From positions 4,108-68,107 of the forward strand of contig JAJCYY010000013.1 of assembly GCA_029262735.1 (NCBI GenBank): 64,000 bases of DNA, read 5' to 3'. Position 1 is the first letter of the stretch. Each line of letters begins with the position of its first letter. Of this stretch, positions 8,980 to 42,579 are shown piece after piece. The DNA is from Chloroflexota bacterium. GTDB taxonomy: Bacteria; Chloroflexota; Dehalococcoidia; Lucifugimonadales; Lucifugimonadaceae. The notes under the pieces are model-generated. The model ran no database searches and had not been told where the DNA came from. It saw only the letters and a list, made by a program, of their open reading frames with translations. Both the position numbers and the translations under genes were made by a program.

Positions 8980-8985
8980 TTCGGA

Positions 8986-19368: not shown

Positions 19369-19442
19369 CTAGTCGTCTCCACGAATGACAGATCTGGATT
19401 TTTTTCCAATCGCCATTTACTCGCTAAACTCAGCAACCCGAC

Positions 19443-20612: not shown

Positions 20613-20629
20613 TGGTTGAATGGTCAGAG

Positions 20630-25108: not shown

Positions 25109-25298
25109 TATCCGAGTCAACGGGCAGCCTCAATTTCCTTCTCATATTCGTTTTCGGCTCCGCCCTCTCTTCATCTGACGTCAGTTCGGACACCAGCCGT
25201 TCTGCGATCTCGCTTTCTTCAACTCGCATATCTCAAATCCTGATCCCTAGTGCGTCGCCGTTTTTGAACTGATTCCGAACACATCTATGTAGACTGGC

Positions 25299-25688: not shown

Positions 25689-26156
25689 AATCCAGGGCGC
25701 CGATCACAATTAAGAATCCTTCTCATAATCATTTCCGGCTCCTCTGTTTGTGTCCGTTCAAATGTGACTCCCTTTCGGGATGGCTAACATCGTCGTCTAG
25801 CTCACTCTCACACACACGCCTTTGCCTTTCGACGTTGCAGCCGGATGGGCTCGCCACCGCAAGCTCGTGCGTGGGGATTGTTGGGGCGCCGGATCACTCA
25901 AGACCGCAAACCCTCAAGCCTCTTCAGATTAAAAATACTGGGCATCGGGCACAACAGACATGTCAGGGAGAACAAAGGTGAGTATTGCCGTTGATGGGAG
26001 TCCGCAGGGATCTAACTCCTGGACTCGAAAAAAGTTCACTGGAGACGAGGTCGGGTCTCAAGTAACAGACACGTTCAAGCGTCGTGTCCAACGGTCACTA
26101 GACGCAAGTTTCGGAGCGGCAAATTAAGGTCTCGAAATGATCAACTCGAACGAAAC

Positions 26157-26212
26157 TGGTGGGGAAGGTGGGATTCGAACCCACACGTCTGTTAAGACAC
26201 ATGCTCCTAAGG
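26157..26212 (-). repeat. direct repeat: 3' 56 nt of tRNA-Leu(UAG) (att-like)
   Basis: The sequence TGGTGGGGAAGGTGGGATTCGAACCCACACGTCTGTTAAGACACATGCTCCTAAGG is near-identical to 42494-42549. Confidence 0.8.
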
Positions 26213-26335
26213 TATTTTCAACTGAGTGCTAGGCGTCCAGAACGACAATCCCAAGCGAAACAGCAATAATTATGTGGCCTAACTTCGGAGCGAAAATCGG
26301 CGGAGAGACAGCGCAGCCTGCTGGTGATACGCCCG

Positions 26336-27361
26336 CTACGCAGAGGCCGCTTGATAGAACTTCTTCGCGGCAAGGAACGCGCCGATGAACCCTTTGTTTC
26401 CTATGCCCCAACTGAAGGCACCTGACGCATCGACGGCGAGCAGTTGATTCGCCATACGCTCCGCCAGTGAATCGTACTCGGCAACAGATGCCCCGACATT
26501 TTCCCGAACCTCTGCTGGTGTCGTCGCGCCGATTTTCGCGGATCGTAGCACCTGGATCGATGCGTGGTTCGCAGCCTCCAGAATGCGATGGGGGAAGTCC
26601 GGGCTGTGTGGTAAAAGCGGGCTGATGGCGACCGAGACGAAGACGCCCTCGTCCTTCAGACGTCGCATGATTCGCAGTCGTCGGTCCGGAGTGATGCCGC
26701 CACGTTCGATCTTCCGTTGTTCAGGCAGAAGATCGGAGCTGATGCTGAAGCTGACACCGACACGCCCCTTCAGTCCTAGTGCAACAAGTCGCTCCAACAC
26801 CTGAGGGTCCTCAACCACTTTTGGTGAACGCGTCTGGCACATCAAGAACACGTTCGACTGGTCGAAGACCTCAAGGTTCTCACGAGTCGTCCGCAACGTT
26901 TCCGGCATTGACAAAAAAGGGTCTGTCTTGGGGCTCATGAACACAGATGCCCCCCCAAGCCCCTTTTTTGGACGTCCTGACGGATCGAGCAGCGCCTTTC
27001 GGAGTCTTGCCGTGATTTCCGGTTTGGGAAGAAGCCAGGATCCCCATTTCCTGAACCAGTAACCGTCTCTTCCACCCGGATAATGCCCTGTCATCAAGTC
27101 CGGCACGTAGCAGAAGCTGCAACTCTTGCCCCAGAGGCAACCAATCCACGGATCGAACGTGTAGATGTTCGCCGGCGCATCGGTCGCCTCGAACTCCGGG
27201 AACGCCCGCTCGCCCGAAAGTTGTCCCCAGAAACCTGACTTCTGGTGGTTGAGCACCACCTTCTGACCCGAAGGCAACAGATCATTTTCTGGGTGCGCCG
27301 GACCGCGGAGAATCGGCTCAAATGAACCGGATAACTGTAAGGGTAACTTGAGTTGCGGCAC
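26336..27361 (-). CDS. radical SAM protein, SplB/COG1533 (DNA repair photolyase-like) family
   Basis: The product has a GCLWGKSCSFCYV cysteine cluster (CX5CX2C variant) and a downstream SPKTDPF...PE motif resembling the TDPYQP.E motif of COG1533. It has a GTG start directly abutting the stop of the upstream ParB-like gene (TAAGTG). Confidence 0.6.
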   Translation of the reverse strand: MPQLKLPLQLSGSFEPILRGPAHPENDLLPSGQKVVLNHQKSGFWGQLSGERAFPEFEATDAPANIYTFDPWIGCLWGKSCSFCYVPDLMTGHYPGGRDGYWFRKWGSWLLPKPEITARLRKALLDPSGRPKKGLGGASVFMSPKTDPFLSMPETLRTTRENLEVFDQSNVFLMCQTRSPKVVEDPQVLERLVALGLKGRVGVSFSISSDLLPEQRKIERGGITPDRRLRIMRRLKDEGVFVSVAISPLLPHSPDFPHRILEAANHASIQVLRSAKIGATTPAEVRENVGASVAEYDSLAERMANQLLAVDASGAFSWGIGNKGFIGAFLAAKKFYQAASA

Positions 27362-28117
27362 TTAAGCATCCACACTGTCAGCCGATGATGGCGAGGGAGA
27401 TAACGAATCTCGATCTAGGTAATGCCTGGCAAGCGTCGCAAGAGCGCCGCCCCGGCGAGTCGTGTCGTTCGACCGATGCAAAGCGACATCGAGTGCGAGA
27501 TTCAGCACTCGGTACTCTTCGCTGTGCAGCATAAATCCCATCGAAACCGTTTCGTTCGGAGTTTCTGTCTCTTGTCGAACTTTCTCAGAAGTATCGAAGT
27601 TGGCGATCTCGAGCAGCCTCATGATCTGGCGTTCGCTGTCCGGCAACAGCTCGCAAAGCTCTTCGGTGGAACGCCCATCAAGCAGACCGCAGAGCAGCAC
27701 AGCTCGTCGTTCCGGAATGTCTTTCCCGGAGAGGCGGTTGATTGTAGCCAGGCAAAGCGCCGTTTCCCTATCGTTCAGATTCCAGACAATGCACTGAGCA
27801 GATTCTAGTTGGAGAGCCTGCAGGACCATTAACCGATTTCTTCCATCGATTACTTGGTACTGACCGCGTACTTTAGGGTAGGGACGCACGATGAGTGGTT
27901 CATGGTAACCGGTCAGCTCAATGATCCTCCTCAACTTTGTCAGTCTGTCGGCCGGCATATGATTCGGGCAGCCCACATGAGGAACTAAGCGTTCAAGATT
28001 GATTGAGCGTAGCCTCTCTCTTGAGCATCTTCTCAACCTCCACCAACTTGCCCGATCCCCAACACGCCAATTCTGACTAACGGCTTGCTCAAGAAGCTGG
28101 TACGAGCCTGCTTGCAT
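27362..28117 (-). CDS. ParB-like / DUF262-like nuclease-domain protein
   Basis: The product has the ParB N-terminal domain signature IVRPYPKVRGQYQVIDGRNRLMVLQAL. An alternative start at MPADRL (about 27958) is possible. Confidence 0.6.
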   Translation of the reverse strand: MQAGSYQLLEQAVSQNWRVGDRASWWRLRRCSRERLRSINLERLVPHVGCPNHMPADRLTKLRRIIELTGYHEPLIVRPYPKVRGQYQVIDGRNRLMVLQALQLESAQCIVWNLNDRETALCLATINRLSGKDIPERRAVLLCGLLDGRSTEELCELLPDSERQIMRLLEIANFDTSEKVRQETETPNETVSMGFMLHSEEYRVLNLALDVALHRSNDTTRRGGALATLARHYLDRDSLSPSPSSADSVDA

Positions 28118-29708
28118 TCCTGATATTCAAATCGAGGCTATTCTCTCCGGGTTTCCAGAGCAGATATGCATGGTTGTCCCGAAGCCGGAGTGTTCTTGAA
28201 ACGTCGACTGCCGTGATACCACCGTCGCAGTGTTCAAGAATGTGGGCTTTTAATGTCTGAGGAAACAGGTCGTAGTCTTCGATGAAAAGTAAATCACAGA
28301 CGTCAAGTAACCCGTCCAGGATGCTGGCCCCGTTCGCGGACAACAGGGACTCCTCATTGAATATCCGAGCGGGCGCATAAAAATCGTGCTCACGGCCATC
28401 ATTCGAGTCGCATCCAGTGAGGCGATGCATGCTTCGGTAGAAAGCAGAGAGTGATAGCAGTATGCAAGAACAGCTCGAATCGGCAGCGATTTGGCGGTTT
28501 TGAAATGAAACTGCTCGATCACCGTCACCGAAGCCATAGCAAACTTGACCTAAAAACTTTTCGTTGTGCACGTCAGACTTTTCGAAGGACCTGCGGGCCT
28601 TGGGCTCCATGCACAGATCGGCCCAGGAGAGGCCGGTAATATCGAATTTGCTTAGATTGTTGAGCAGCTTAGAGATGATTCCGATGCGGATACCGTTGGA
28701 AGCTGGCAGCCTGTCGAAAGAATCCAGCCAGCGCCTGTTGTCCTCGGCAAAGAACGTTACGCAGTCAAATTTCTCCTTGATCGATTCGCCGCGAAGGAAT
28801 CGCAGCGGATCCCTCACAACCAGATCCACAGACCAAACACGTACGCGGCAGGAGCCGGATTCAGCAGAGAGTCGAGTCCGGGAGCGTTTGAGCGTCGTGG
28901 AAACCAGGCTCCCGCTACCGGCTCCTATATCCACGATCTCGACGCCTCGATAGGTGTCCTTCTCGGCAGACCACTGTCGTATTACCGGATCAATCACTTT
29001 GTTCACTATGCGCTTGGCTCGCTGCTCAGATCGCGGATCGACACCGCTCGTTGCGAAGTTCGAAAATGCGTCAACTGTCAAGAAACTAGCCGTCCGTGCG
29101 CGATTGGATGCTGCCGGGAAGATCAGCAGCGACAGTTGAGAATTAGGAACCAGCGTTAATTGCCGGTAGTGGTAGAACAGCTCGGCATCTTCGCTGGCAG
29201 CTAGCATGATCAATGGAAGATATCCTGTGCTGTCGGGACTGTTCGGAGCATTCAGCTTTGCCATCAGATAAGCCGGGTTTCTGAGAGTAGTCGTCGCCCC
29301 CGCCTTTCCGTGGCTGTCTGCAGGCGAGGTCAGAATCGCAAAGCACTCGAACGCTAGGACAGTCCTCAATGCAGCTCGGTACTTCATTTCAACGCTCGTC
29401 GACACCACGGCATCCACACTGTTAAGTAATCTGAAGTAGTTGTAGCAGTAGTCAGCTACGTGGGATGAATCGAAGCCACACGCAATATATTCCAGCCAGA
29501 TTCCACGAAGGGACTCCAGACGCTTATCGACTTCATGAATGTGCAAATCCGTCACAGGGGGCCAATACTCTGCCCAGTCGGCCGTATCTATGTGAAATTG
29601 ACCTGATTGATGAACCGTTACGCTCTTGATGAGAGTAGGTTCCTGCAATGCTGATAGAAGTGACCCGCGAAACAAGGATCTTACGGTCTTGTCGGCCATG
29701 CTTGGCAA
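28089..29708 (-). CDS. large protein with class-I SAM-dependent methyltransferase-like core
   Basis: The product has motif I (VEIVDIGAGSGSL) followed by an acidic beta-2 end (VWSVDLV). It is 539 aa and the flanking domains are unassigned. Confidence 0.5.
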   Translation of the reverse strand: MPSMADKTVRSLFRGSLLSALQEPTLIKSVTVHQSGQFHIDTADWAEYWPPVTDLHIHEVDKRLESLRGIWLEYIACGFDSSHVADYCYNYFRLLNSVDAVVSTSVEMKYRAALRTVLAFECFAILTSPADSHGKAGATTTLRNPAYLMAKLNAPNSPDSTGYLPLIMLAASEDAELFYHYRQLTLVPNSQLSLLIFPAASNRARTASFLTVDAFSNFATSGVDPRSEQRAKRIVNKVIDPVIRQWSAEKDTYRGVEIVDIGAGSGSLVSTTLKRSRTRLSAESGSCRVRVWSVDLVVRDPLRFLRGESIKEKFDCVTFFAEDNRRWLDSFDRLPASNGIRIGIISKLLNNLSKFDITGLSWADLCMEPKARRSFEKSDVHNEKFLGQVCYGFGDGDRAVSFQNRQIAADSSCSCILLSLSAFYRSMHRLTGCDSNDGREHDFYAPARIFNEESLLSANGASILDGLLDVCDLLFIEDYDLFPQTLKAHILEHCDGGITAVDVSRTLRLRDNHAYLLWKPGENSLDLNIRNASRLVPAS

Positions 29709-30021
29709 ATGGAACCACCCGAGTGTCCGGTGAAGAAGAGAAATATACGAATCGGGAATCGAGCTCGAGCGCCGGGCTTTTCTTGCCGGTTACGCTCCTC
29801 TCCAACATAGAAACAGGTGACAGCAAGAACAACCGGCATGTCAGGTGAGCTGACTAAACAGCGCCGACAGAGTCTGACGGCAGCGATAAAGAAGATCGCT
29901 CCTAAACAGATGAAAAGAATCGGTGACGAGATCCATTCTCAATCGTCAAACATGCCTATGAAGTGACCAACAAGCGCTAGGCGACAATTTTCAACTCGCC
30001 ACCGAGCCCACTGAACAGCAA

Positions 30022-30075
30022 TGGTGGGGAAGGTGGGATTCGAACCCACACGGATTGCTCCACATGCTCCTAAGG
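30022..30075 (-). repeat. direct repeat: 3' part of tRNA-Leu(UAG) (att-like)
   Basis: The sequence TGGTGGGGAAGGTGGGATTCGAACCCACACG...CATGCTCCTAAGG shares its T-arm and acceptor with the other copies. The variable-arm region diverges. Confidence 0.75.
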
Positions 30076-30671
30076 GATGAAGAGGTTGTTCACAGACATA
30101 CCACAACGTCCTTCCAAGTGCGCGGCGAATGGCAACAGGTCCACAAACGACCACCTGCGTCCAAGAGTGTCGCTCGTTGCTACTGTCAGATTGACTGTCT
30201 GGTTTGCATCGAACCGTCCATGGAATCAGCACACGAGGGCCAAACACACGCGTCTTCGGGTTGACCTTGTATCTTCTTCGCTAACGTCGCCTGGATGGTG
30301 GCGTCGATGTGACCTTCTCCCCGAGATTCGCGCCGAATTAGGTGATAATTTTCAGGGAAGATTCTGAACCTAAGAATGGGAGATCATGTCGTGAAGAGAT
30401 CTCAGGTTACAAACGATCAGCCGTTCTTCTGGCGGATGTCCCGTACCGCTCCTGTCAGGATTGCTGTCATGTGGTTGCCGAAAACCATGAACGACAATTG
30501 TTACTCCAGTTGGCCCGGCTTGTGATGGAAGTTTTGGGACCATGAGCAGCGGCCGACGGCACATGCTTACCTGATATGAGGTGGACTTCGCGCTGGTTCC
30601 CTGAAGCAGCGATTTCGAATCCTTGTGTTTTCAGGTAATGAATACTGGGCCATGTATTTTTAGGAAACTCA

Positions 30672-30974
30672 TCACCCTCGCTGTATCGGACTCGCATTTA
30701 CTTTTTGCTCATCAATGATGATCTTTGCGGCTGATCCCCACAGGTAACCACCGAGTGCTCCAAACGGAATGCCAGCCACGAAGAGTCCCAGTCCGGCGCC
30801 AATACGAATGCCCATCTCGCCCCAGCCAACTCCGCCGCCCACATCGACGTCGTAATCGAGTGCGAACAGGAGGGCCATGCCGGCGAGGAAACCGGCGATG
30901 GCCACGATCCAGGCAATGACCGAAAGAATGCGGACGAACAGAAACGTCGGCCAGAGAACCAGGTAGCGGATCAT
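30672..30974 (-). CDS. small Gly-rich membrane protein
   Basis: The 100-aa product has three predicted TM segments. It lies immediately downstream of the SPFH gene. Confidence 0.45.
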   Translation of the reverse strand: MIRYLVLWPTFLFVRILSVIAWIVAIAGFLAGMALLFALDYDVDVGGGVGWGEMGIRIGAGLGLFVAGIPFGALGGYLWGSAAKIIIDEQKVNASPIQRG

Positions 30975-30980
30975 TACTCA

Positions 30981-33020
30981 CTAACCCTTTTCATCGATTT
31001 CCGCGTCACCGTCGGTTACAGCAACAACTTCATCACCGGGGATCTGATTTGGGACAGCTACACCTGGTTCTGCAGGGCTAGCTTCGGTGACTTCAGGATT
31101 CGAGCCTGGCTCCGCCTGAGGTCCATCTTCGTTCGCTATGTCAGTGATCTCGGATACACCTGATGCGTTCACTGACGGCCCAAGCGCTGTCGCCAACCAG
31201 GCGTTGAACAAACCGTTCCCGTCGCCGCCCCCGGTCACAGAAATTTCTGGGGTGATCTTCACGTTGCCCCTTGCGACCTCCTCCAGCACCTTCAAGACGG
31301 CCAACCGCTCCGAGCCGATCACGCCTGCCTGCGCCGAGAACGCCTCGGCAGTTGCAAGGCCAACCTGCTTCACCGCCTGCGCATCACCATCAGCACGGGT
31401 GCTGGTGGAATCACGGACACCTTCAGCCTCCCTCCGGGCCGCCTCCGCCCTGCTACCAGCAATCTCTACCGACAGCTTCGCCTCTACGACCTGTGTCTGC
31501 TGGTCGGCCCGCGCCCGTTGCTCCTGGACACCGATGCGCTCCGATTCGGCGAGCGCTTCCTGCTGATACTGAGCCTGCTGCTGGGTCGCGATTTCCTTCC
31601 TCGTCTGCGTGTCCAGCAAAGACTGGTCGACCGCGATGTATGCGATCAGTAGGTTCTGTGCTTCCACGAAGTAGTGAAGAAACTCTTCGCGAGCCCTTGC
31701 CAGCGCCTGCTGCTGCAACTCAGACCTGCCCTGTACAAAAGCGATAGCCTTCTCTTCACCTGCCCTATTCCGGAATGACGAGTCGATCAGTGGGTGAACG
31801 ATCTGCTCGATCAAGTTCTCAACCGAACCAAAACGAGCGATGACGAATGGTGCGTATTCCGGCCGGATCCGAATGATCATCCGGACATCCACGTCGAGGT
31901 GGAAACCGTCCATCGAAGTCACACGCAGCTGGTTGAACTTGAAGAACTCAGCGGCTCGGCCTTCGGTGCCCGGCTCGAATTCGATCGGCACCGGTGAAGG
32001 TAGGTCCATCCTCACGTGAGGACCTGAAGCCCAGTCGATCGTCACTGCACTGGTTGGAACCAGAAACGGGTTGTAGGCAATCGGGTTCAAGTTGTACGTT
32101 CCGGGTGCCACAGGATCACGGAGGATCCCGCGCCTTTCACGGTCGGTTATCAGAAGCCCTTCAATTCCCTCGTGAATCGGCTGGCGTAGGTCCTCAGTGC
32201 TTCCAGGAATACGCGGCGTTTCGATGTTGTCATCGAGCTCCTTTCCTACGTTCGATCTGAGTACTGCAACGTACCCGGGCGGCACATCGGCAACCGGGTG
32301 CGTCTGGATCTCGAACAGCAGCGGATTGATGTAGTAGCTACCGGGCTGAAGCGTGTCCAACTGCGGACCCCGATAACCCCCACCCTCTATGAACGACTGT
32401 CCATCCTGAAAGAACCGGTACTGACGAACGCGCGTGCCCTCGTCCGAAGCAGCATCCACAGGTTTAGGCGCCACGATGTATCCGGGTGCAAGCGCCATAC
32501 CGTCTAGCGCTATGGCGACTCCCACCTGCCCCGCTTCGATCTTCGTCGCACGCGCAGTTCGAATCCTGAACAGCTGCGTGTTTATCCGGTAGACGCCCGG
32601 GCGAATGATCTCGACCTGCGGGCCTTTTTTGCCTCCGCTCTGAAGGAAGGCGCGACCATCCTGGAACGAGTCACAGTCGACTGCGTCACCCAGCAATCTC
32701 CCGGCGGGAAGCGCTTCGCCGTCGATCGATTCGACGATACCAACCTCGTCAGGGTTGATCACCGTCACCGGAACGCTTTCAAACTTCCATGTCAGCGGAG
32801 ATCGCCAGTACAGCCCCGGCTTCAATACTGAAGCGAGAATGCCCACTTCCTGGTTCCGGGCGATTATGTGTCCCTGGGGCAGCTCTTTGCCGCCCATCTT
32901 CCGGGTCAGTATTCCGACCTGGTCGTCCCGAACCAACCTGACACCCGTCGCGACAAACGAAGCGAGCGAAAAGAACGCGATGCCGGACACAATTGCCAGG
33001 CCAACTATTTCGATAGCCAT
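30981..33020 (-). CDS. SPFH/band-7 (flotillin-like) membrane protein
   Basis: The product has an N-terminal TM segment, SPFH-like repeats and a long coiled-coil region rich in EA-Q repeats, as in FloT/YuaG flotillins. It ends in an acidic tail. Confidence 0.65.
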   Translation of the reverse strand: MAIEIVGLAIVSGIAFFSLASFVATGVRLVRDDQVGILTRKMGGKELPQGHIIARNQEVGILASVLKPGLYWRSPLTWKFESVPVTVINPDEVGIVESIDGEALPAGRLLGDAVDCDSFQDGRAFLQSGGKKGPQVEIIRPGVYRINTQLFRIRTARATKIEAGQVGVAIALDGMALAPGYIVAPKPVDAASDEGTRVRQYRFFQDGQSFIEGGGYRGPQLDTLQPGSYYINPLLFEIQTHPVADVPPGYVAVLRSNVGKELDDNIETPRIPGSTEDLRQPIHEGIEGLLITDRERRGILRDPVAPGTYNLNPIAYNPFLVPTSAVTIDWASGPHVRMDLPSPVPIEFEPGTEGRAAEFFKFNQLRVTSMDGFHLDVDVRMIIRIRPEYAPFVIARFGSVENLIEQIVHPLIDSSFRNRAGEEKAIAFVQGRSELQQQALARAREEFLHYFVEAQNLLIAYIAVDQSLLDTQTRKEIATQQQAQYQQEALAESERIGVQEQRARADQQTQVVEAKLSVEIAGSRAEAARREAEGVRDSTSTRADGDAQAVKQVGLATAEAFSAQAGVIGSERLAVLKVLEEVARGNVKITPEISVTGGGDGNGLFNAWLATALGPSVNASGVSEITDIANEDGPQAEPGSNPEVTEASPAEPGVAVPNQIPGDEVVAVTDGDAEIDEKG

Positions 33021-33089
33021 CTTTCTTAAACCTCTTCACCACAATCAAAGTTGCAGCGGAGCGTCCGCTGTGTTGTCGAGCGATCCATC

Positions 33090-33437
33090 TCAGGTGCTAC
33101 TTCCGAGCTGCCACATCCGGGTACCGACAGCGAAAACCAGAACCGTCGGCACGAACAACGTGATGCCGAATGCCAACTGGAATGCGTAACTGGACCGAAG
33201 CTCTCGGAATCCGATAGCGCGGGAAATTGCCTCTGCGGCATGGAGCAACACCCACGACGTGATCCACATGACCGATGCAAGTGCCAGGACTGGCACTGCC
33301 ATGCAACGCGCTGTCGCCCTGGCAGGCCGCGAAATCAGCGATCTAACCGAAGAGGCCAACGTCGTTCCGGTTGATATGCGTGAAACGACCTCGACCAGTG
33401 TTGAACTTGATGCCTCAATTGCTGCACGGGACTGCAT
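33090..33437 (-). CDS. small membrane protein upstream of SPFH gene (NfeD-like position)
   Basis: The 115-aa product has two TM helices. It lies in the same operon as the SPFH gene. Confidence 0.4.
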   Translation of the reverse strand: MQSRAAIEASSSTLVEVVSRISTGTTLASSVRSLISRPARATARCMAVPVLALASVMWITSWVLLHAAEAISRAIGFRELRSSYAFQLAFGITLFVPTVLVFAVGTRMWQLGSST

Positions 33438-33684
33438 TGGTTTCTCCTTTAGCGGGCTGGTACTCGGTCATCGAGCACGACCTCCTGCGGACACAACCCT
33501 GTGCCCCCTGTGCCCCCTTTGCCCTTTGAGAAACACACTAGCCACGGCCTAGTCCCATCTGTAGCTCGCCAGTCCCAGGAGCGTCCCAGAGTTCAATCCC
33601 GCAATCCCACGGAGTCGCGTCCGAGTCCTACAACAGGTGCCGGAGAATCCGCCCGTAAACTCATAGGCCTATAATCCCCGCCAG

Positions 33685-36600
33685 ATGACAGACCTGAATC
33701 AATCTGGATTCGTGACCAACGCTGCCGGTGCGCAGGAAAACGTTGAGCACGATGAAATCGAGTCCCAGCCTGCGAGAACAGATCCTCTGGCAAACCAGTT
33801 GCGGAGCGCGCTGGATGCTCTTCATGACATCAAGGAACTAGAACGGCATCCCCTCGCGTTCCGCCTGGCCGGTAAGTCCGAGAGCACGCCGGAGCTCCGT
33901 GCCCGTCGACTGCAAAGGTGGCTCGTAGACGCCATCAATAAGCTACGACCTGAGAATCCGGGCAGGGCACCCGATTCCCAGGAGAGCCGGTGGCATACGC
34001 TGCTGAACGCGCGGTACATCGAGGGTCTTGAGCCGGAGGTTGTGTGGAGGCGGATCGGGCACGGCCGATCAAGCTTCTTTCGACACGTAAGTAGTGGAAT
34101 TGATGAATTGGCCCGGCAGTTTCGAAACGAGACGTCCGGTGGACCCGACGCCATTCCTCCCCTGATCTCCGGCGGCTACGAATCAGAATTCGTTGGCCGA
34201 GAGCAGGAGTTCTCGGTTCTCAAGGCCCTCTACAACGAGGTCGCTTCAGGAGCCGGCGGCCGGGTCGCAATGATCACCGGTGAGGAAGGGATTGGGAAGA
34301 CCCGACTCGCTCGGGAGCTTGGCAAGTTTGTTGAGAAAGAGGGAGGCTTATTCCTCGAGGGCCGATGGGCCGCGTGGGAGGGCGCTGCTCCGTACGGCGC
34401 TCTTGCCGACAGCCTGAGACAGGGCATTCGTCAGCTTGATCCTGAGGAAGTCGATTTTGCTGTAGGTCCTTACAGGCGTGAACTGACCCGTATCCTGCCA
34501 GAACTGGCTGAAAAGCCAGAGAGCCGAACCGATGAGACGGCACAAGGTGTCGAGGGTGAACAGCTGCGCTTCTACGACGGCGTGTTCTGGCTCGTCCAGA
34601 ACCTGTCGCAGAAACAGCCGCTCGTCCTGCTTCTCGACGACCTCCACCTCGCCCCACAGATGAGTCTGCAGCTACATATCGCGCGACGCCTGCCGGAGCT
34701 GCGACTGCTCATTGTTTACGGATTCAGGGAGAACGAGTTAGCCGAGAAGACTGCCCTTTTTACCGGACGCAACGAGATGGTGCGGAACAGGCTAGTAACC
34801 GACATAGCGTTAATGCCAATCACTGAATCCCAGGTAGAGCAAATCATCGCAAACGCCTTCGAACCAGACATCGCAGCTCATCTGCGAAACCGGATTTTCG
34901 AAATTAATCGAGGCAACCCATTCTTTGTCGAAGAGGTCCTCCGATATCTGCTGCAGAACCAAATGATCCGCAGGTCCGACAGAGGATGGGAAGTCCAAGA
35001 CATCACGCATCTTGGCATTCCCGAAACAGTCAAGCGGCTTGTCCAGGATAGGGTCGACAGGCTGGGCGAAGAAGCAACAAGCGTCCTGCGGCAAGCGTCT
35101 GTGCTGGGAAGAGATTTCAGATTCGATGCTCTGACTGTGATGACCCAATTGCCCGAAGACGAGCTTGTCGAAGTAATTGAAAGGGCCGTCGCTGGCGGGG
35201 TGCTGGTCGACAGTACGCGCGCAGCTGCAGCCGAGGAGTACAGGTTCCGTGATGACCATGTCCGGGAAGCTCTGTACGACGGCATCACTTCACCCAGGCG
35301 GAGGCGATACCATCGGGCGGCTGGCGGCGCACTAGAAGAGACCGACCCGAGCAGACTCCAGGAGCTTGCATTTCACTTCACCACGGGCAGTGATCTGGAA
35401 CGTGGTGCGAAGTACTCATTCGAAGCGGCTGAACAAGCCAACGCAGCGTTCTCGTGGAACAGGGCCATACCACTATACCGTGATGCTCTCGACCTCTGGG
35501 ACGAGCTTGGCGATCACCGGGATGAACGAGCTTTGGCAGCGGAACGCCTCGGAAACGCCTGCTACAAATCAGGCATTCAAGCGCAGCGAGCTACAGGCTA
35601 CTTCCAGCAGTCCCTCGATCTCTACACGGAGCTTGGAAACGAATCCAAAGCGGCGACCATTCTCTCGGAACTCGGCCGCGAGCACATGCACAGCGGCAAC
35701 CTGGCTGCCCAGGACTTGAACTTGGCACTAAAGCACTTCACCGATGCAGAGGCGATCATCTCCCGAGAACCGGAGAGCATCAGGCACGGCATGGTGTACT
35801 GCGGACTTGCGATGGTGCACCTGGACAGGATGGAATTTCGTGACGCGCTCGAATGGGCGCACAGGGCGTTCGAAGTTGGCAAACGCATCAACGCTCCGGC
35901 TGTTATTGCGAACGCCAGCGTCCCTCTCGGCGCTGCGACGGCGATGGAGAGCGTGTCAGACGCTGCGGACATCCTGGAGCGTGGTTGGCGCACTGCCATC
36001 GAATCGGACCTCGGCTTTCAATCTGATCTATCCCGCGCTTATGCAGCGCGCGTCCTAGGAGCGATGCCGAAAGATCCGCGCACCGGCATCGAGTGGGTAA
36101 ACCGAGGTCCGCGATATGAGACTACCTATTCACTGTTCGATATTCCCGCTCACCTGGTTGCGTTCCATGCGCTGGCAGGTGAGTTCGATGAGGCAGAGAA
36201 ACACTTGGACGAGCTTCAGCGTAGGCTGGCAGCGCTCGGTCAGCCCACATTCGGGCCATGGCCGGATGAACTTGGCCTACTGTGGATCCGCACCGGACAG
36301 CTGGAACATGCCGAGGTTCAGCTTGGCAAAGCGCTGGATTGGGCGACAAATAGCGGGAACAGGCTGGTTGAAGCCGGGACGGCAAGGCGTCTTGGCGAGG
36401 TACTGACACACCTGGGTCATTACGAGGTGGCCGAAGAGAAATTCCTGCATTCGCTCAAGCTGAACCGGGCCGGCGGGAATCGGATAGGTGAGTTGGCACT
36501 TTTACCACAACTCGCGCAGCTGTACTGCGAAACCGGACGATTCAACGATGCGGAGAACACTTTGGTGCGTGCCCGCAAAGTTGAATCCGAAATCGATGCG

Positions 36601-36894
36601 CCCGGAGCGCTAAAAGGTGATCTCTTTCTCGCCAATGGAATTGTGAACGCAGGCTTCCGGCGAATAGAAGAGTCCGACAATGCATTCAGGAGCGCCCTGG
36701 ATATTTACCGAGAGTTCGATCGCCCATGGGACGAGGCTCGTGCCTACTATGCACTGGGACTGGTGACAAGAGCGATTTCAGTCAACGAGTCTGATGTCAG
36801 CCGCTCTCGGGAACTAGTAGGGAAAGCGGATTCGCTGTTCTCGTCCATCGGTGCGACATGGTGGGCGGAACGTTGTCGTCAAGGTCATGCATGA
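33685..36894 (+). CDS. STAND-type NTPase with N-terminal sigma-70-region-4-like HTH and C-terminal TPR repeats
   Basis: The 1069-aa product has an HTH-like segment (RWHTLLNARYIEGLEPEVVWRRIGHGRSSFFRHVSSGIDEL). It has Walker A (GEEGIGKTRLAREL) and Walker B (LVLLLDDLH). The C-terminal half contains multiple TPR-like helices. Confidence 0.7.
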   Translation: MTDLNQSGFVTNAAGAQENVEHDEIESQPARTDPLANQLRSALDALHDIKELERHPLAFRLAGKSESTPELRARRLQRWLVDAINKLRPENPGRAPDSQESRWHTLLNARYIEGLEPEVVWRRIGHGRSSFFRHVSSGIDELARQFRNETSGGPDAIPPLISGGYESEFVGREQEFSVLKALYNEVASGAGGRVAMITGEEGIGKTRLARELGKFVEKEGGLFLEGRWAAWEGAAPYGALADSLRQGIRQLDPEEVDFAVGPYRRELTRILPELAEKPESRTDETAQGVEGEQLRFYDGVFWLVQNLSQKQPLVLLLDDLHLAPQMSLQLHIARRLPELRLLIVYGFRENELAEKTALFTGRNEMVRNRLVTDIALMPITESQVEQIIANAFEPDIAAHLRNRIFEINRGNPFFVEEVLRYLLQNQMIRRSDRGWEVQDITHLGIPETVKRLVQDRVDRLGEEATSVLRQASVLGRDFRFDALTVMTQLPEDELVEVIERAVAGGVLVDSTRAAAAEEYRFRDDHVREALYDGITSPRRRRYHRAAGGALEETDPSRLQELAFHFTTGSDLERGAKYSFEAAEQANAAFSWNRAIPLYRDALDLWDELGDHRDERALAAERLGNACYKSGIQAQRATGYFQQSLDLYTELGNESKAATILSELGREHMHSGNLAAQDLNLALKHFTDAEAIISREPESIRHGMVYCGLAMVHLDRMEFRDALEWAHRAFEVGKRINAPAVIANASVPLGAATAMESVSDAADILERGWRTAIESDLGFQSDLSRAYAARVLGAMPKDPRTGIEWVNRGPRYETTYSLFDIPAHLVAFHALAGEFDEAEKHLDELQRRLAALGQPTFGPWPDELGLLWIRTGQLEHAEVQLGKALDWATNSGNRLVEAGTARRLGEVLTHLGHYEVAEEKFLHSLKLNRAGGNRIGELALLPQLAQLYCETGRFNDAENTLVRARKVESEIDAPGALKGDLFLANGIVNAGFRRIEESDNAFRSALDIYREFDRPWDEARAYYALGLVTRAISVNESDVSRSRELVGKADSLFSSIGATWWAERCRQGHA

Positions 36895-36947
36895 AGCTCG
36901 AAATTTCATCTCCAATTCTGACGATCACTGGAGCTAGCGATCGTGAA

Positions 36948-36967
36948 ACTGTCAAACATACTGTCAA
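36948..36967 (+). repeat. direct-repeat motif ACTGTCAA-N4-ACTGTCAA
   Basis: The sequence ACTGTCAAACATACTGTCAA lies between the STAND gene and the MFS gene. The same dyad occurs at 42183-42202 and 42425-42444. Confidence 0.7.
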
Positions 36968-37234
36968 AATAGCGTGATGGAGGGGCAACTCATACCAGCT
37001 AATGAGTTTCGCAATTGAGAAATGACGTTTCATATGTGTGCTGGAAATTAGCGTCACATGCCCCGGCACTATGAAGAGCCCACTCAGACGCGGATCTCTC
37101 ATCTTCTTATAATCTCTCTCGTCGAGAGATTGGACTGAATCAAACCAAGATATCGTGCCATCAATCGGACACGATCGATGAAAAGAAGCCTGGTCATCGG
37201 GACCGTCGCCTGGTGTTCATCAAGGAGCCGGTGA

Positions 37235-38554
37235 GTGGTCAAGACCGTTGCCGGAAGTTCTGATCAGGACACCACATCGACTGCAACCGCGCCATCTGTC
37301 ACTCACCCGTCTGGCCGCGCGGGCTTGTTCCACTCGTTCAGCTATCGCAGCTTCAGGATGCAGTGGATCGCCGATTCCCTGATGAGTTGGTCGAATGAGA
37401 TGGAGAACCTGATCCTGGGCTGGTTCGTCCTGGTGCAGACCGACTCCCCGTTCTTACTCGGCCTGTTCGGTGCACTGAAATTTCTCGGCACGCTAGTAGC
37501 ACCAATCTATGGCGTCATTGCAGACCGAATGGACCGACGCCACATGCTCATCGGCCTGCGTTCGATATTCGCCGTCCTTGCGTTGACTGTCACGACGCTG
37601 GCGCTGACCGGCACACTCGAAGTGTGGCACGTGTTCGTCATCGCCACCCTGACCGGCATGATTCGCGTGGCAGATAACGTAGCCCGGCAGGCGCTCATCG
37701 CCGACATTGTTCCCCGCGAATCCCTGCTGAACGCGTATGGCCTCACTCGCACCACACAGGACTCAGCGAAGATAGCGGGTTCGTTGATTGGCGCTGGACT
37801 ATTCGCCCAATTCGGTCTTGGCCTCGCCTATACAGGCGTAACCGTTCTATATGCCAGTTCCGTGGTGTTCATCGCTGCGGTGAGCATCGTGCGTCGGGCT
37901 GTTCCTTCGCAGCGTGATCCAGTCTTCCGTACGCTCAAGTCGGGAGTCTCATATATGCGCGATTCTCCGACCATCATGGCGGTGATGTTCCTGGCATTCC
38001 TGGTGAACCTCACTGCCTTCCCGCTCTCGAACGGCCTGATGCCAGTTGTAGCACGCGACCTGTTCAACACGGACGAGAACGGGCTGGCGAGGCTGCTGGC
38101 GGCAGTTGCCTCCGGGGCGCTGACGGGGTCTATCGCGATGGCTGCGTTGTCACGCATCGCGCGGCCTGACCGCGTGATGCTGTTTGGGGTAGTGGCGTGG
38201 CATCTGTTCCTGTTGTTGTTCGCCCAGTTTGACACCGCGGGGCCGGCGTTCCCCGTGCTGGCAACGGTGGGATTCGCCAGTTCAGTTTCAATGATCTCGA
38301 TGACCGTACTCCTCATGACCACAGTACAACGAGAGTTTCGCGGTCGCGTAATGGGCGTTCGGATGCTGGCGGTCTATGGGCTACCGATGGGACTGCTGAT
38401 AGGCGGTGCGCTTGCTGAAGTGTTCGGAATCCAGGCGACGATCACGATCTACGGCATTGTCGGCCTGGTGCTCACGGCGCTGTCAGTGGTCGTCTGGCCG
38501 CAGTTATTGCGAAGCGGAGCAGTGATAGGGAGCGATGCTCCGCCCCGCGAGTAA
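37235..38554 (+). CDS. MFS transporter
   Basis: The product has 12 predicted TM segments and an MFS signature (GVIADRMDRRHMLIGL). Confidence 0.8.
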   Translation: MVKTVAGSSDQDTTSTATAPSVTHPSGRAGLFHSFSYRSFRMQWIADSLMSWSNEMENLILGWFVLVQTDSPFLLGLFGALKFLGTLVAPIYGVIADRMDRRHMLIGLRSIFAVLALTVTTLALTGTLEVWHVFVIATLTGMIRVADNVARQALIADIVPRESLLNAYGLTRTTQDSAKIAGSLIGAGLFAQFGLGLAYTGVTVLYASSVVFIAAVSIVRRAVPSQRDPVFRTLKSGVSYMRDSPTIMAVMFLAFLVNLTAFPLSNGLMPVVARDLFNTDENGLARLLAAVASGALTGSIAMAALSRIARPDRVMLFGVVAWHLFLLLFAQFDTAGPAFPVLATVGFASSVSMISMTVLLMTTVQREFRGRVMGVRMLAVYGLPMGLLIGGALAEVFGIQATITIYGIVGLVLTALSVVVWPQLLRSGAVIGSDAPPRE

Positions 38555-38631
38555 GGCCGTCATTGCCCGAACAGTTCCCGACCCACGATGGATTCTGCAA
38601 TCGCGGCATCGGTACCACCTTGCCCGCCCAT

Positions 38632-38661
38632 TCGCCTTCGCCTTCGCCTTCGCCTTCGCCT
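38632..38661. repeat. hexanucleotide SSR (CGCCTT)x5
   Basis: The perfect tandem repeat lies in the convergent intergenic region between the MFS and KAP genes. Confidence 0.9.
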
Positions 38662-38875
38662 GTCAAAGTTACTGTGAAACGCGATCGAGGCCACTATTAT
38701 CCGTAGCATTGCATCTCGAACCGGTGTCTCATGGAGCTCCGAGCACATGCCTCTCGGCCATGACGGCCCTTTGATTCAGCGCATCTTCTGCCCACTACCA
38801 TTACGCTCCGTGGTGACCAGCCGACGGTCGGCACACGACCGATAGTCTGCGAGAGATCGCGAACTTTCGTGTGAC

Positions 38876-41659: not shown

Positions 41660-42182
41660 CGGCTGTGCCTTCTTTTTACATACGGCCCTCTAGCGCGAGG
41701 ACAACGCTGAGTTCACTGTGCGATCATATTCCAGGTTGGATCCTACGGATTGGAGAGAGTGACCGCCCGCTAGACGAATCAGAATCATTCCCATCGAATC
41801 CGCTGAGCGGATGGAACGGCATGATCGTAGTGAAACCGTCGATCCTAGTGGATTGTGTACAAACTTATCGTTGTTCACAACACATTGGCTATCCTAAAAG
41901 ACTCTCATCAGGAAGTCGAAACAACGATTCAGATCATGACTCTCCCATTGACCCACCGAGGTCGAGACCCTGGAACAAGGCCACAAGATTCTGGGAGGTC
42001 AGAGTCTGCTGCCGTTCTACGATTATCCCGTTCGTTGCAGGATCCCAACTTCCGAGTCGAACTCCGACCCTCGAGACACAATTGCCGATCAACTTTGTCT
42101 GTGTCGGTCAATGAATTCAACGTGCTCCTGGGAAGCGCCGAGAGCGGAACCCCTATGAATCGTGCCAATACCGATAACGTTG

Positions 42183-42202
42183 ACTGTCAACACTACTGTC
42201 AA
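42183..42202 (+). repeat. direct-repeat motif ACTGTCAA-N4-ACTGTCAA
   Basis: The sequence ACTGTCAACACTACTGTCAA lies about 290 bp from the tRNA-Leu 3' end. The left copy is embedded in the palindrome TTGACTGTCAA. Confidence 0.7.
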
Positions 42203-42424
42203 AAAACCTCATTTCCCGTGGACGGGCGATTGTTGCATCTCGATATCAGCTTCTGAAGGCTGCTTAGCACATGCTTCCCGATCTTGACAGCGATTGAAGT
42301 GGGGTTCTGGTCTGAACTTTCATCTCCGACAGGCCTAACAGTCCTTGAAATTGACCTGATCGGTGGAACTGAGGTAATACGAACTCCGAATCGAGATGCG
42401 CCCGTATTCATAGCCACAGGTGAA

Positions 42425-42444
42425 ACTGTCAAAACTACTGTCAA
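42425..42444 (+). repeat. direct-repeat motif ACTGTCAA-N4-ACTGTCAA
   Basis: The sequence ACTGTCAAAACTACTGTCAA lies about 50 bp from the tRNA-Leu 3' end. Confidence 0.7.
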
Positions 42445-42493
42445 TCCGTGTTTCGGACGACCTCATGAATTCCTCGAAACAGCTAAGTTGAAC

Positions 42494-42579
42494 TGGTGGG
42501 GAAGGGGGGATTCGAACCCCCACGTCTGTTAAGACACATGCTCCTAAGGCATGCGCGTCTGCCATTTCGCCACTTCCCC
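42494..42579 (-). tRNA. tRNA-Leu (anticodon UAG), type II with long variable arm
   Basis: The minus-strand sequence is GGGGAAGTGGCGAAATGGCAGACGCGCATGCCTTAGGAGCATGTGTCTTAACAGACGTGGGGGTTCGAATCCCCC(C)CTTCCCCACCA. It has an anticodon stem CATGC/GCATG with loop CUUAGGA, a variable arm GTCT-TAAC-AGAC and an encoded CCA. There is one extra C in the T-stem relative to the repeat copies. Confidence 0.85.

Follow-up and report, generated by a model that had tools for sequence, protein, structure and literature searches.

A conserved, mobile operon for ParB-like, radical SAM and methyltransferase-fold proteins, probably acting on DNA, in a tRNA-Leu islet of Chloroflexota

Three genes enclosed by partial tRNA-Leu copies

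What kind of unit is a block of three genes enclosed by two fragments of a tRNA-Leu gene, and what could it do? The question is raised by positions 26157-30075 of the window, i.e., the entire 64,000-nt stretch of Chloroflexota DNA analysed here. As an earlier note on this DNA had proposed, exactly three credible genes, all on the minus strand, lie between two partial 3' copies of tRNA-Leu(tag) (Table 1)—an arrangement upheld by the repeat alignment and by an independent gene call on the same DNA (L005), which returned the same three genes. The cassette is an insert of ~3.9 kb, with a repeat-to-repeat spacing of 3865 nt. The 31-mer TGGTGGGGAAGGTGGGATTCGAACCCACACG occurs in exact copies at 26157-26187 and 30022-30052 and, with 2 mismatches, at 42494-42524, within the intact tRNA-Leu(tag) 12.4 kb from the cassette; such a repeat match was found in 0/100 shuffles. 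When aligned to this tRNA gene, the repeats match its 3'-terminal 56 nt, which extend back to the anticodon loop. The two mismatches of the distal copy form a compensatory pair in the T stem; the proximal copy carries the same two changes, but differs in a stretch of the variable loop. Neither ARAGORN nor Rfam called the distal copy as a tRNA. The segment had also been described as AT-richer than its flanks, and the GC content is indeed 53.7% in the cassette vs 57.2% in the window; however, the low-GC tract (~24 to 31 kb) extends past the cassette.

Table 1. Features of the cassette and its surroundings, numbered from the first nucleotide of the window.
Feature	Position	Strand	Remarks
Distal tRNA-Leu(tag) copy, last 56 nt; att-like right boundary of the cassette	26157..26212	-	2 mismatches to the tRNA
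Radical SAM enzyme, 341 aa, SPL/COG1533-like ('type A')	26336..27361	-	PF04055, CX5CX2C
ParB-N (ParB/Srx) protein, about 224 aa, uncertain start	27362..28036	-	PF02195
'BIG' protein, 536 aa; N-terminal domain and class-I SAM-methyltransferase fold	28089..29699	-
Non-coding leader, ~320 nt, from proximal repeat to first gene	29700..30021	-	No credible ORF
Proximal tRNA-Leu 3' copy, 54 nt; att-like left boundary of the cassette and right boundary of the neighbouring island	30022..30075	-
Neighbouring 12.4-kb island of the same tRNA-Leu array	30076..42493	.	SPFH protein, AAA_16+TPR STAND-like NTPase, MFS transporter, KAP NTPase
Intact tRNA-Leu(tag), presumed original integration target	42494..42579	-	Sole intact tRNA in the window

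The gene boundaries deserve closer attention. The TAA/GTG stop-start contact reported at 27362/27361 is correct, and the ATG at 29699 is the more likely start of the first gene, giving 536 aa rather than the 539 aa noted earlier. In contrast, the supposed 29-nt overlap between the first two genes rests on the longest ParB open reading frame, the residues 1-27 of which are unmatched in homologues. A 227-aa gene call in the closest relative and the conserved N-terminal box INLERLVPH argue for a start at TTG 28036 or ATG 27958; from either of these, the ParB gene would be separated from the upstream gene by a gap. Although the start is uncertain, we favour TTG 28036; ATG 27958 and ATG 28117 are possible alternatives.

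A conserved unit with two gene orders

The trio is an operon-like conserved unit. In tblastn maps of 38 fetched loci, 27 of which were independent and had enough sequence, genes for the large (BIG), radical SAM and ParB-like proteins were adjacent in 25 of the 27 independent loci encoding BIG. The earlier note had held that its idea would fall if the homologues never co-occurred; the trio was found together across phyla. A genome scan recovered 21 loci among 185,579 species, distributed over five phyla (Chloroflexota, Planctomycetota, Gemmatimonadota, Fibrobacterota and Bacillota), and the hosts are mostly anaerobes. Two gene orders were observed, i.e., the majority type B, BIG-rSAM-ParB-small, where the extra gene encodes a small protein of 132-136 aa, and type A, BIG-ParB-rSAM, to which the window belongs. 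Moreover, when all three genes were compared with those of an 80%-identical cassette found in another sample, dN/dS values of 0.12-0.26 were obtained, with 0.12 for the radical SAM gene (vs L035) and 0.17 over 224 codons for the ParB-like gene.

The unit has no published description, defence-system model or family name. The claim that the combination is not a known system held in PADLOC, NCBIfam, PHROGs and the literature, none of which contained a system matching the trio.

Mobility of the islet

The islet is a single copy of an operon that is both conserved and horizontally mobile, and it is located in a tandem tRNA-Leu island array, in support of the tRNA-associated islet proposed earlier. 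In at least 11 loci (the window, L002, L003, L010, L014, L020, L023, L027, L028, L029 and L037), significant direct repeats—mostly tRNA or tmRNA 3' ends—tightly bracket the unit, with no integrase inside and with a spacing of 3.8-4.5 kb (3.0 kb in the two-gene locus L029). At least 10 targets are represented: tRNA-Leu, Val, Met, Asn, Pro and Ala, two further tRNA 3' fragments, tmRNA and one non-tRNA site. The homology between L003 and L007 begins and ends exactly at the repeats, and L007 retains junction remnants of a tandem or circular form. In addition, the window and L035 have identical tRNA-derived ends, with a dS of 0.6-0.9 for their genes. Tyrosine integrases are the commonest family in the flanks, and their genes or fragments lie just beyond the repeats in ~8 loci. 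The islet most likely relies on tyrosine integrases encoded by neighbouring islands with the same tRNA target site, which would move it in trans. No integrase was detectable in the 64-kb window, the adjacent 12.4-kb island included, so the window copy may be immobile.

An alternative is that the three or four encoded proteins are themselves the integration machinery, forming an autonomous element that targets tRNA 3' ends with neither a tyrosine nor a serine recombinase. The many tightly bracketed loci and diverse targets, all with no internal recombinase, would suit such an element, as would four loci with no integrase nearby (L020, L014, L027 and L037), the ends shared by the window and L035 despite synonymous divergence, and the end motif TACAATAGGCAGAAC, which is conserved and abuts the repeat in L003, L007 and L037 despite their different tRNA targets. 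However, the repeat lengths fall into two classes (~50 nt, starting in the anticodon loop, or 12-19 nt of 3'-terminal sequence) and, as Williams reportedly described in 2002, such classes are typical of different tyrosine-integrase subfamilies—a pattern that suits several of these rather than one mechanism. Both orientations of the cassette relative to the tRNA were seen, integrase genes or fragments adjoin the repeats as described above, and no resemblance to a recombinase, transposase or nuclease was found in any of the proteins. A self-integrating element is therefore highly improbable.

Families and folds of the three proteins

The three motifs listed in the earlier note (VDIGAGSGS, YQVIDGRNRL and CX5CX2C) were all found in the respective proteins. 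The radical SAM enzyme matches PF04055 at 33.8 bits (cut-off, 29.5), and its NCBIfam matches to PA0069, rSAM_mob_pairB and Rv2578c are far under the cut-offs (57 vs 360, 40 vs 410 and 31 vs 430 bits, respectively). It also matches PHROG 13321 (4.5e-18). By profile, its best and only solved relative is spore photoproduct lyase (SPL; E = 0.014), and no match to PF20903 (SPL) was found in the window enzyme. The cysteine triad C75-X5-C81-X2-C84 is invariant in 15 type-A sequences. Type A and type B enzymes share only ~22% identity and differ in their clusters (CX5CX2C vs CX3CX2C), and the chemistry may differ between the two architectures as their radical SAM partners are so dissimilar. Relatives of the enzyme carry the name 'DNA repair photolyase' in the sources.

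The ParB-like protein matches PF02195 (ParB_N) at 26.9 bits (cut-off, 26.3), with no Pfam match to DUF262; the suggested DUF262/GmrSD link is unsupported. Its family profile aligns with Noc/ParB structures (2e-7) over the nucleotide-binding and central helical domains, and the ParB-N part of DNA-methyltransferase fusions was matched as well. In place of GERR and ENLQR, the protein has GxNR and LNR. A plasmid-partition ParABS system, the alternative named in the earlier note, is not at hand: no parA lies nearby, and the ParB gene always accompanies the other two.

The assignment of a class-I SAM-methyltransferase motif I to the large protein stands. Structure prediction places a class-I SAM-methyltransferase fold after a new N-terminal domain (~residues 1-250), for which no match was found among solved structures. 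Motif I (VDIGAGSGS) is invariant across the family, as are the SAM-binding residues D260, G262, G264, G266, D295 and D315. The nearest structural neighbours are methyltransferases of small molecules, proteins or RNA, and the DNA-methyltransferase motifs (D/N/S)PP(Y/F/W/H) and PC(Q/H/S) are absent from 25 BIG sequences.

Possible functions of the module

Since the same unit recurs beside tRNA genes in several phyla, the cassette is quite probably a real, selected and mobile module that acts on DNA. We infer ParB-assisted radical SAM/SAM chemistry on DNA as its function, with modification favoured and lesion repair as a close rival; the writing of a modification is put forward tentatively as the specific activity. 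The module would act on double-stranded DNA, where the ParB-like protein—possibly nucleotide-gated—would bind and activate or deliver the enzymes. The radical SAM enzyme would employ a 5'-deoxyadenosyl radical to take a hydrogen from a base, like SPL and gp53 of phage M6, and the methyltransferase-fold protein would add a methyl or other SAM-derived group, so that bases in the DNA of the host or the element would end up covalently modified. The relationship to SPL and the names given to the radical SAM relatives are consistent with this proposal, as are the matches of the ParB-like protein to Noc/ParB and to methyltransferase-fused ParB-N domains and the fold and invariant SAM-binding residues of BIG. 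Furthermore, an SPL-like radical SAM enzyme is known to install a DNA modification (PMC8989533), and a phage DNA thymine dioxygenase that works on dsDNA depends on a short ParB protein for its activation (PMC13229309). On the other hand, the lack of DNA-methyltransferase motifs in BIG, the substrates of its structural neighbours and the strong divergence of the radical SAM enzyme between architectures all speak against DNA modification.

Regulatory sequences bear on the closest rival—a module for lesion repair or damage processing, expressed upon damage, in which the SPL-family radical SAM enzyme directly reverses a base lesion or cross-link with no need for light or oxygen, while the ParB-like protein scans or marks DNA and the large SAM-binding protein recognises the lesion or assists. 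The sequence GAAC-N4-GTTC serves as the LexA box in Firmicutes and Actinobacteria and varies in Chloroflexi (PMC4951493). Of the 12 such boxes present in the 332,687 nt of loci, 8 precede the first gene by no more than 390 nt, a 59-fold enrichment. These boxes in relatives add weight to repair and damage-inducible readings, and suit a repair function induced by damage at least as well as modification. Spore photoproduct reversal is the sole characterised cellular function in this radical SAM family, to which the photolyase names of relatives may be added; a true SPL-family gene (PF20903, 5.6e-34) is divergent from the first gene in L021; the mostly anaerobic hosts would suit a radical SAM repair enzyme; and neither a restriction partner nor a defence-database match or phage copies accompany the trio. 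Yet the box is present in only ~8 of 28 loci, and LexA control extends to mobile elements and toxins as well. In the window, the leader has neither a sigma-70 consensus nor a LexA-type box, and the cassette contains no such box even allowing 2 mismatches, although the host has the same box upstream of imuB-dnaE2. Moreover, lesion reversal offers no obvious role for a protein that combines a methyltransferase fold with invariant SAM-binding residues, and a very patchy spread on att-bounded islets is unusual for repair genes. On balance, we consider repair somewhat less likely than modification.

Defence or addiction directed at phages or plasmids, in which a trigger would set the radical SAM and methyltransferase-like enzymes to damage or mark DNA, whether incoming or the cell's own, is improbable. 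Small mobile islets at integration hot spots would fit such a role, and so would the KAP and STAND-type NTPases neighbouring the cassette in the window, a VapBC pair beside the L003 unit, a TOTE conflict-system primase-helicase at L026 and the recurrence of ParB/Srx proteins in Dnd, Dpd, BREX-related and Menshen systems. However, PADLOC models detected nothing beyond the ParB-N domain, the open reading frames flanking 28 loci—contrary to a defence-island setting—were enriched for integrases alone and not for defence genes, and no member of the family was found in 2.9 million viral contigs. The cassette contains no gene for a nuclease or other effector, nor a recognisable sensor. For lack of an effector, a PADLOC match, flank enrichment and viral copies, a restriction-modification-like logic is unsupported; what is left of the modification/restriction or repair module envisaged earlier is modification, which we favour tentatively, and repair as its close rival. 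Quite improbable, finally, is a substrate other than DNA, whereby a small molecule, an RNA (e.g., tRNA) or a protein would be made or modified through the operon, with the ParB/Srx protein as a kinase-type enzyme. ParB/Srx-fold enzymes include serine kinases and sulfiredoxin, the ParB-like protein has weak NCBIfam matches to SerK and SbnI (E 0.1-0.15), the structural neighbours of BIG would agree with such substrates, and pairs of radical SAM enzymes and methyltransferases are common in tRNA and natural-product pathways. The protein nevertheless fits partition and nucleoid-occlusion proteins (1e-7 to 1e-9) far better than kinases, and its alignment with Noc/ParB extends across the central helical DNA-binding region. 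The operon is accompanied by no biosynthetic genes, such as those for a transporter or a precursor peptide, and the att repeats account for the link to tRNA genes.

Comparison with known systems

Integrase-less, att-bounded islets are known from tandem arrays at tRNA or tmRNA genes, examples being cis-mobilisable elements and the ssrA islands of Dehalococcoides. The cassette resembles these in its tRNA/tmRNA 3' repeats, tandem islands and integrases in neighbouring units, but differs in that one cargo operon occupies at least 10 different att sites in both orientations, with putative mobilisation in trans; to our knowledge, no such distribution of a single cargo operon has been described.

The radical SAM enzyme belongs to the same superfamily branch as SplB/COG1533 proteins (PA0069, Rv2578c and 'radical SAM mobile pair B'), with which it shares a predicted partial TIM barrel and an N-terminal Cys triad. 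It departs from them in its CX5CX2C (vs CX3CX2C) cluster, the missing PF20903 match and the low family scores and, unlike SPL, it is always accompanied by the ParB-like and large proteins. Phage M6 gp53, the only precedent for a radical SAM enzyme installing a DNA modification, is an SPL-like isomerase of thymidine hypermodification that acts post-replication on DNA (PMC8989533). The cassette likewise encodes an SPL-like radical SAM enzyme, whereas gp53 is phage-encoded alongside a 5-hmdU kinase, an aminoacyl transferase and a PLP decarboxylase—none of which the cassette has—and the cassette family is missing from viral contigs.

Like ParABS/Noc proteins, the cassette ParB has N-terminal and central helical domains, and Noc and ParB are its best solved matches; it is set apart by the altered GERR and ENLQR motifs, its length of ~200-225 residues, the absence of parA and of an identified parS, and a gene always found inside a three- or four-gene operon. 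A short ParB/Srx protein placed beside, or fused to, a DNA base-modifying enzyme is also seen in the ParB-dependent phage T-dioxygenases (PMC13229309), DndB, DpdB and ParB-N::DNA methyltransferase fusions. In place of the dioxygenase, PAPS-reductase, TGT or Dnd proteins of such systems, the cassette joins its ParB to a radical SAM enzyme and a methyltransferase fold of non-DNA type.

A tRNA-Leu-bounded cassette in a tandem array

The cassette is a site-specifically integrated genomic islet with direct repeats of its target at both ends—an arrangement found in the window and at ten further loci carrying its relatives (L-numbered in the table), where most of the bracketing repeats scored better than all 200 shuffles. 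A single tRNA, tRNA-Leu(tag), was detected in the window by ARAGORN and Rfam. The final 56 nt of this gene, beginning in the anticodon loop, are copied at one end of the cassette with two mismatches, which compensate each other in the T stem; the copy at the other end carries the same two changes together with a different stretch in the variable loop. A 31-mer is identical between both copies and differs from the tRNA at two positions, and it was matched in 0 of 100 window shuffles. Between the copies, our ORF scan found three ORFs on the minus strand and no other credible one, as did an independent gene call on another assembly of the same DNA (L005), so that the count of exactly three genes in the earlier note stands. 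The 29-nt overlap it described rests on the longest ORF and is not supported: comparison with homologues, conservation of an N-terminal box and the gene call in the closest relative (L035) favor a later start of the ParB-like gene, at TTG 28036 or ATG 27958, and the first gene, encoding the large protein termed here BIG, probably starts at 29699. The segment, said to be AT-richer than its flanks, does have a lower GC content than the window (53.7% versus 57.2%), although the low-GC tract is broader than the cassette and covers about 24-31 kb. Scanning the cassette for promoters and terminators gave chance-level results.

The repeats and gene content at tRNA-Leu therefore describe a tandem array, running from the intact tRNA through a 12.4-kb island, a tRNA fragment and the 3.9-kb cassette to a second tRNA fragment. 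The neighboring island encodes an SPFH/Band-7 protein (679 aa), a small membrane protein, an AAA_16+TPR STAND-like NTPase (1069 aa), an MFS transporter and a KAP-family NTPase (927 aa), with no integrase and no PADLOC match; a reading of these genes as a defense island was rejected for want of PADLOC support. At gene boundaries inside this island we observed a 25-nt motif, GTGAAACTGTCAAA..TACTGTCAA. One copy is 50 nt away from the 3' end of tRNA-Leu, and the motif may be a regulatory site or one of arm type. Just outside the cassette lie two paralogous small ORFs, whose products have hydrophobic N-termini, a common C-terminal tail (GITPDS.DPR...SRRAD.NSNDPRD.INR) and no family match. Elsewhere, the window holds a cobalamin riboswitch, DUF1800, DUF1501 and NHL-repeat genes, which are typical of Planctomycetota/PVC bacteria, and, near tRNA-Leu, an FtsZ homologue, which is unexpected for many Planctomycetia.

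Features of the cassette, its surroundings and related loci (positions in nt of the window or of the named locus)
Locus	Feature	Position	Details
Window	BIG gene	28089-29699(-)	536 aa
Window	ParB-like gene	27362-28036(-)	
Window	Radical SAM gene	26336-27361(-)	341 aa
Window	tRNA-Leu(tag)	42494-42579(-)	
Window	tRNA-Leu 3' copies	26157-26212; 30022-30075	repeat 54-56 nt, spacing 3865
L010	tRNA-Met repeat		perfect 50 nt, spacing 3884
L023	tRNA-fragment repeats		47 and 51 nt, spacing about 4500
L028	tRNA-fragment repeat		31 nt, spacing 4169
L002	Non-tRNA site repeat		44 nt, spacing 3967
L020	tmRNA repeat		17 nt, spacing 3991
L003	tRNA-Val repeat		14-19 nt, spacing 3846
L027	Repeat beside tRNA-Leu		14 nt, spacing 3831
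L037	tRNA-Ala repeat		13 nt, spacing 4000
L014	tRNA-Asn repeat		12 nt, spacing 4169
L029	tRNA-Pro repeat		12 nt, spacing 3003; BIG and radical SAM only
L007	Copies of opposite cassette ends	7790-7830; 11640-11700	also L008, L009
L003	End sequence (AG)TACAATAGGCAGAACTTT	7811-7850	abuts repeat
L007	End sequence (AG)TACAATAGGCAGAACTTT	7811-7850	abuts repeat
L037	End sequence (AG)TACAATAGGCAGAACTTT	2172-2200	abuts repeat
L002, L003, L007, L012, L028, L033	LexA-type box AGAACAtatGTTCT	4904, 7963, 7963, 959, 6921, 5723 (in that order)	23-80 nt before first gene
L027, L037	Further boxes	1622, 2191 (in that order)	upstream of first gene or at cassette left end
Window	Perfect box AGAACATGTGTTCT	18184-18197	
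Window	imuB-like gene (IMS)	16818-18080	
Window	dnaE2-like gene	12899-16459	
Window	Neighboring island	30076-42493	12.4 kb
Window	25-nt motif in island	36943-36967; 42420-42444	92% alike; weaker copies at 38654 and 42178
Window	Paralogous small ORFs	24803-25108; 25299-25688	101 and 129 aa
Window	DNA repeat at small ORFs	24977-25113 / 25557-25693	77%
Window	Cobalamin riboswitch	6460-6663	110 bits; upstream of genes at 6794-10293
Window	FtsZ homologue	43912-45258	
Window	DUF1800, DUF1501, NHL-repeat genes	18355-22015	
L022	Small-protein gene	235-615	upstream of first gene instead of at end
L028	Second small-protein gene	643-1008	6 kb upstream
L019	tRNA-Pro 3' fragments	668-722; 6379-6425; 12674-12876	three copies
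L021	Spore photoproduct lyase family gene	5569-6912(-)	PF20903, 5.6e-34
L026	TOTE conflict-system primase-helicase	5323-8061	directly downstream of cassette

Mobility in relation to flanking integrases

The repeats fall into two classes—about 50 nt from the anticodon loop and 12-19 nt at the 3' end—and both orientations of the cassette relative to the tRNA occur. No recombinase of the kind an autonomous element would carry lies between the repeats in any locus, and a small tyrosine-recombinase profile detected none in the whole 64-kb window. Among 144 flanking ORFs, the integrase families rank first by Pfam count, and genes for tyrosine integrases, many of them fragments, sit immediately outside the repeats in L003/4, L007-9, L010, L015, L016, L023, L025 and L026. 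Moreover, the homology between L003 and L007 (87%) starts and stops exactly at the repeats, and one conserved end sequence is common to cassettes at different tRNAs (Val, Ala); another end motif of L037, GTTTTACC, recurs only in L027 and was discarded as a general end. The ends of L035 carry the same tRNA-Leu-derived sequence as the window, although dS between the two is 0.6-0.9, and the ends are therefore constrained or repeatedly renewed. In L007, the cassette is flanked by short copies of its own opposite ends, with the core GTGGGCGCTAC, which are the remnant of a tandem dimer or of circular-form integration. The islet would be moved in trans by different integrases, as a cis-mobilizable or satellite-like element; the same integrase-less cargo at ten or more attachment-site-like targets, mostly tRNA or tmRNA 3' ends, raises the question of how small islets move in trans.

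The displaced or second small-protein genes in L022 and L028 and the repeated tRNA-Pro fragments in L019 are signs of cassette arrays and permutation. Three independent Logan contigs (L005, 3869 nt; L035, 3885 nt; L038, 4134 nt) are exactly one cassette long, their assembly having stopped at the repeats on either side—a pattern useful for tracing further copies and no evidence of circles; the 3869-nt contig was rejected as an excised circle because its ends are assembler breaks at repeats, without overlap.

Conservation of the three genes as a unit

Gene neighborhoods, together with tblastn mapping of every locus fetched, place radical SAM and ParB genes next to BIG in 25 of the 27 independent loci with enough sequence, bearing out the co-occurrence on which the earlier note had staked its proposal. 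A genome scan recovered 21 loci among 185,579 species, mainly in Dehalococcoidia and other Chloroflexota and in Planctomycetota including Brocadiaceae, with single loci in Gemmatimonadota, Chitinispirillaceae and Bacillota; the hosts are mostly uncultured anaerobes. Two architectures were distinguished: the majority (type B) has the order BIG, radical SAM, ParB and small protein, and type A, found in the window, L001, L006, L032, L033 and L035, has the order BIG, ParB and radical SAM without the small protein. The latter (132-136 aa) is highly conserved, has no family and no PDB relative, and shows no relation to the additional segments that the type-A radical SAM protein carries. Across the two types, identities reach 30-38% for BIG, 41-48% for ParB and only about 22% for the radical SAM protein. 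L035, from another sample, is the closest relative, and its DNA is 80% identical to the window cassette; dN/dS values against it are 0.26 (BIG), 0.17 (ParB) and 0.12 (radical SAM), and all three genes are therefore under purifying selection. Two neighbors of relatives were also recorded: a true spore photoproduct lyase (SPL) family gene in L021, divergent from a two-gene cassette version without ParB, and the primase-helicase gene in L026.

Predicted properties of the encoded proteins

BIG belongs to no family in Pfam, NCBIfam, PADLOC or PHROGs, and sequence searches of these databases and the PDB returned nothing beyond a marginal methyltransferase signal. Its homologues, 32 clusters in a word-indexed search and 403 representatives among 1.84 billion proteins, are all unfused and about 500-550 aa long; BIG is a new protein family, and none of the 403 representatives is annotated. 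An AlphaFold model from 25 homologues (pLDDT 81, pTM 0.84) predicts a class-I SAM-dependent methyltransferase fold, defined by a Rossmann-like seven-strand fold, motif I (GxGxG) and an acidic residue ending strand 2; the motif-I glycines and acidic SAM-binding residues are invariant across the family. No BIG family member has the DNA-methyltransferase catalytic motif IV, (D/N/S)PP(Y/F/W) or PC(Q), which together with a target-recognition domain characterizes the N6/N4-amino and C5 DNA methyltransferases, and BIG is not counted among these enzymes. The N-terminal 245 residues, modeled alone (pLDDT 85), have no meaningful PDB match.

The ParB-like protein narrowly passes the PF02195 (ParB_N) cut-off (26.9 versus 26.3 bits), and its family profile aligns with Noc/ParB structures (2e-7) over both the nucleotide-binding domain and the central helical one. 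The GxxR nucleotide-binding box is present (G92-x-N94-R95, invariant), with invariant GxNR and LNR replacing GERR and ENLQR, and the protein also resembles ParB-N domains fused to DNA methyltransferases. The DUF262 label suggested earlier had to be withdrawn, as Pfam at E <= 1 returns only ParB_N, without PF03235, and the operon carries no nuclease domain. A plasmid-partition ParB with adjacent parA/parS, named beforehand as a refuting case, is likewise not what we see: parA is absent from the cassette and all related loci, and the cassette has no conspicuous palindromic site.

The radical SAM protein passes the Pfam gathering threshold for PF04055 (33.8 versus 29.5 bits). Its unusual CX5CX2C spacing, as opposed to the canonical CX3CX2C, was read correctly at the outset: the N-terminal triad C75, C81 and C84, which would bind the [4Fe-4S] cluster, is invariant in 15 close type-A relatives. 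The best NCBIfam matches, all of COG1533 type, fall far short of the curated whole-protein cut-offs (PA0069, 56.9/360 bits; 'radical SAM mobile pair B', 39.9/410; Rv2578c, 31/430). Against PF20903 (SPL) there is no match at E <= 1, and the family profile has SPL as its best solved relative, with an E value of only 0.014 across 60 residues; precomputed Pfam gives a weak SPL match for the L002 relative of type B, and relatives of the window protein are named 'DNA repair photolyase' in PHROGs and JGI. Type-B radical SAM proteins (315 aa) have the canonical motif and a C-terminal Cys-rich motif. The window protein represents a subfamily of its own, and its cluster motif is unusual.

LexA-type boxes upstream of related cassettes

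In Firmicutes and Actinobacteria the LexA box reads GAAC-N4-GTTC, and Chloroflexi have variations of it (PMC4951493). Of its 12 occurrences in 332,687 nt of loci, 8 are found no more than 390 nt upstream of the first gene, a 59-fold enrichment; the LexA/SOS-type box in relatives often reads AGAACATATGTTCT. No such box was found in the window cassette, even allowing two mismatches. A perfect box lies elsewhere in the window, just upstream of an imuB-like and dnaE2-like operon that is a probable SOS mutagenesis cassette, which suggests that the host uses a Gram-positive-type LexA motif.

Possible function and comparison with known systems

As the earlier note suspected, the three-gene combination is not a known system: no database model and no paper in the searched literature describes it. 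Phage M6 gp53, an SPL-like radical SAM enzyme, acts on DNA by rearranging a glycine adduct of thymine, and before it SPL was the sole radical SAM enzyme known in association with DNA (PMC8989533); a phage thymine dioxygenase cannot do without a short ParB homologue as its activator, specifically on double-stranded DNA (PMC13229309). These two precedents, together with the resemblance to ParB-N domains of DNA methyltransferases, make DNA the most likely substrate, and a substrate of another kind seems to us distinctly improbable. The analysis shows the gene content, the conservation of the genes together, purifying selection, the folds and motifs, the att-like repeats and the LexA-type boxes of relatives. 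What we infer—DNA as substrate, a role for each of the three proteins, and mobilization in trans—amounts to a ParB-assisted radical-SAM/SAM enzyme module that would act on DNA and be carried on a trans-mobilized islet.

The cassette may write a covalent base modification, the reading that we tentatively favor. The LexA-type boxes of relatives are a new clue to function, and damage-induced lesion repair or processing is a reading that we hold only somewhat less likely. A defense or addiction module is improbable: PADLOC-DB 2.0 returns no system match, only the ParB-N domain matching (to the N-terminus of an MTase_II model) and neither BIG, either radical SAM type nor the small protein doing so, the 144 flanking ORFs show no enrichment of defense genes, and 2.9 million viral contigs contain no copies. 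It is very unlikely indeed that the cassette is an autonomous mobile element whose own proteins carry out or direct insertion into tRNA/tmRNA 3' ends without a tyrosine, serine or DDE recombinase, since the two repeat classes, both orientations and the flanking integrases read as trans mobilization by different integrases.

The cassette differs from the DUF262/GmrSD/DndB type, which has a DGQQR-type ParB domain (PF03235), usually with a DUF1524 HNH partner, neither of which it carries. To our knowledge, only two radical SAM activities on DNA exist, SPL repair and one phage hypermodification step; conserved across phyla, under purifying selection and joining such an enzyme to ParB-like and new SAM-binding partners, the operon described here is a concrete candidate for a third. 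If true, a radical SAM system that writes a base modification into cellular DNA would have no earlier counterpart beyond phages. With a predicted operon of 3.6 kb, compact enough for synthesis and expression, the cassette would offer a testable candidate for new DNA chemistry with an odd mode of mobility. We file it among ParB-associated DNA-chemistry cassettes on tRNA-linked islets, where it would extend an emerging pattern of ParB-like proteins serving as activators or loaders for DNA-modifying enzymes.
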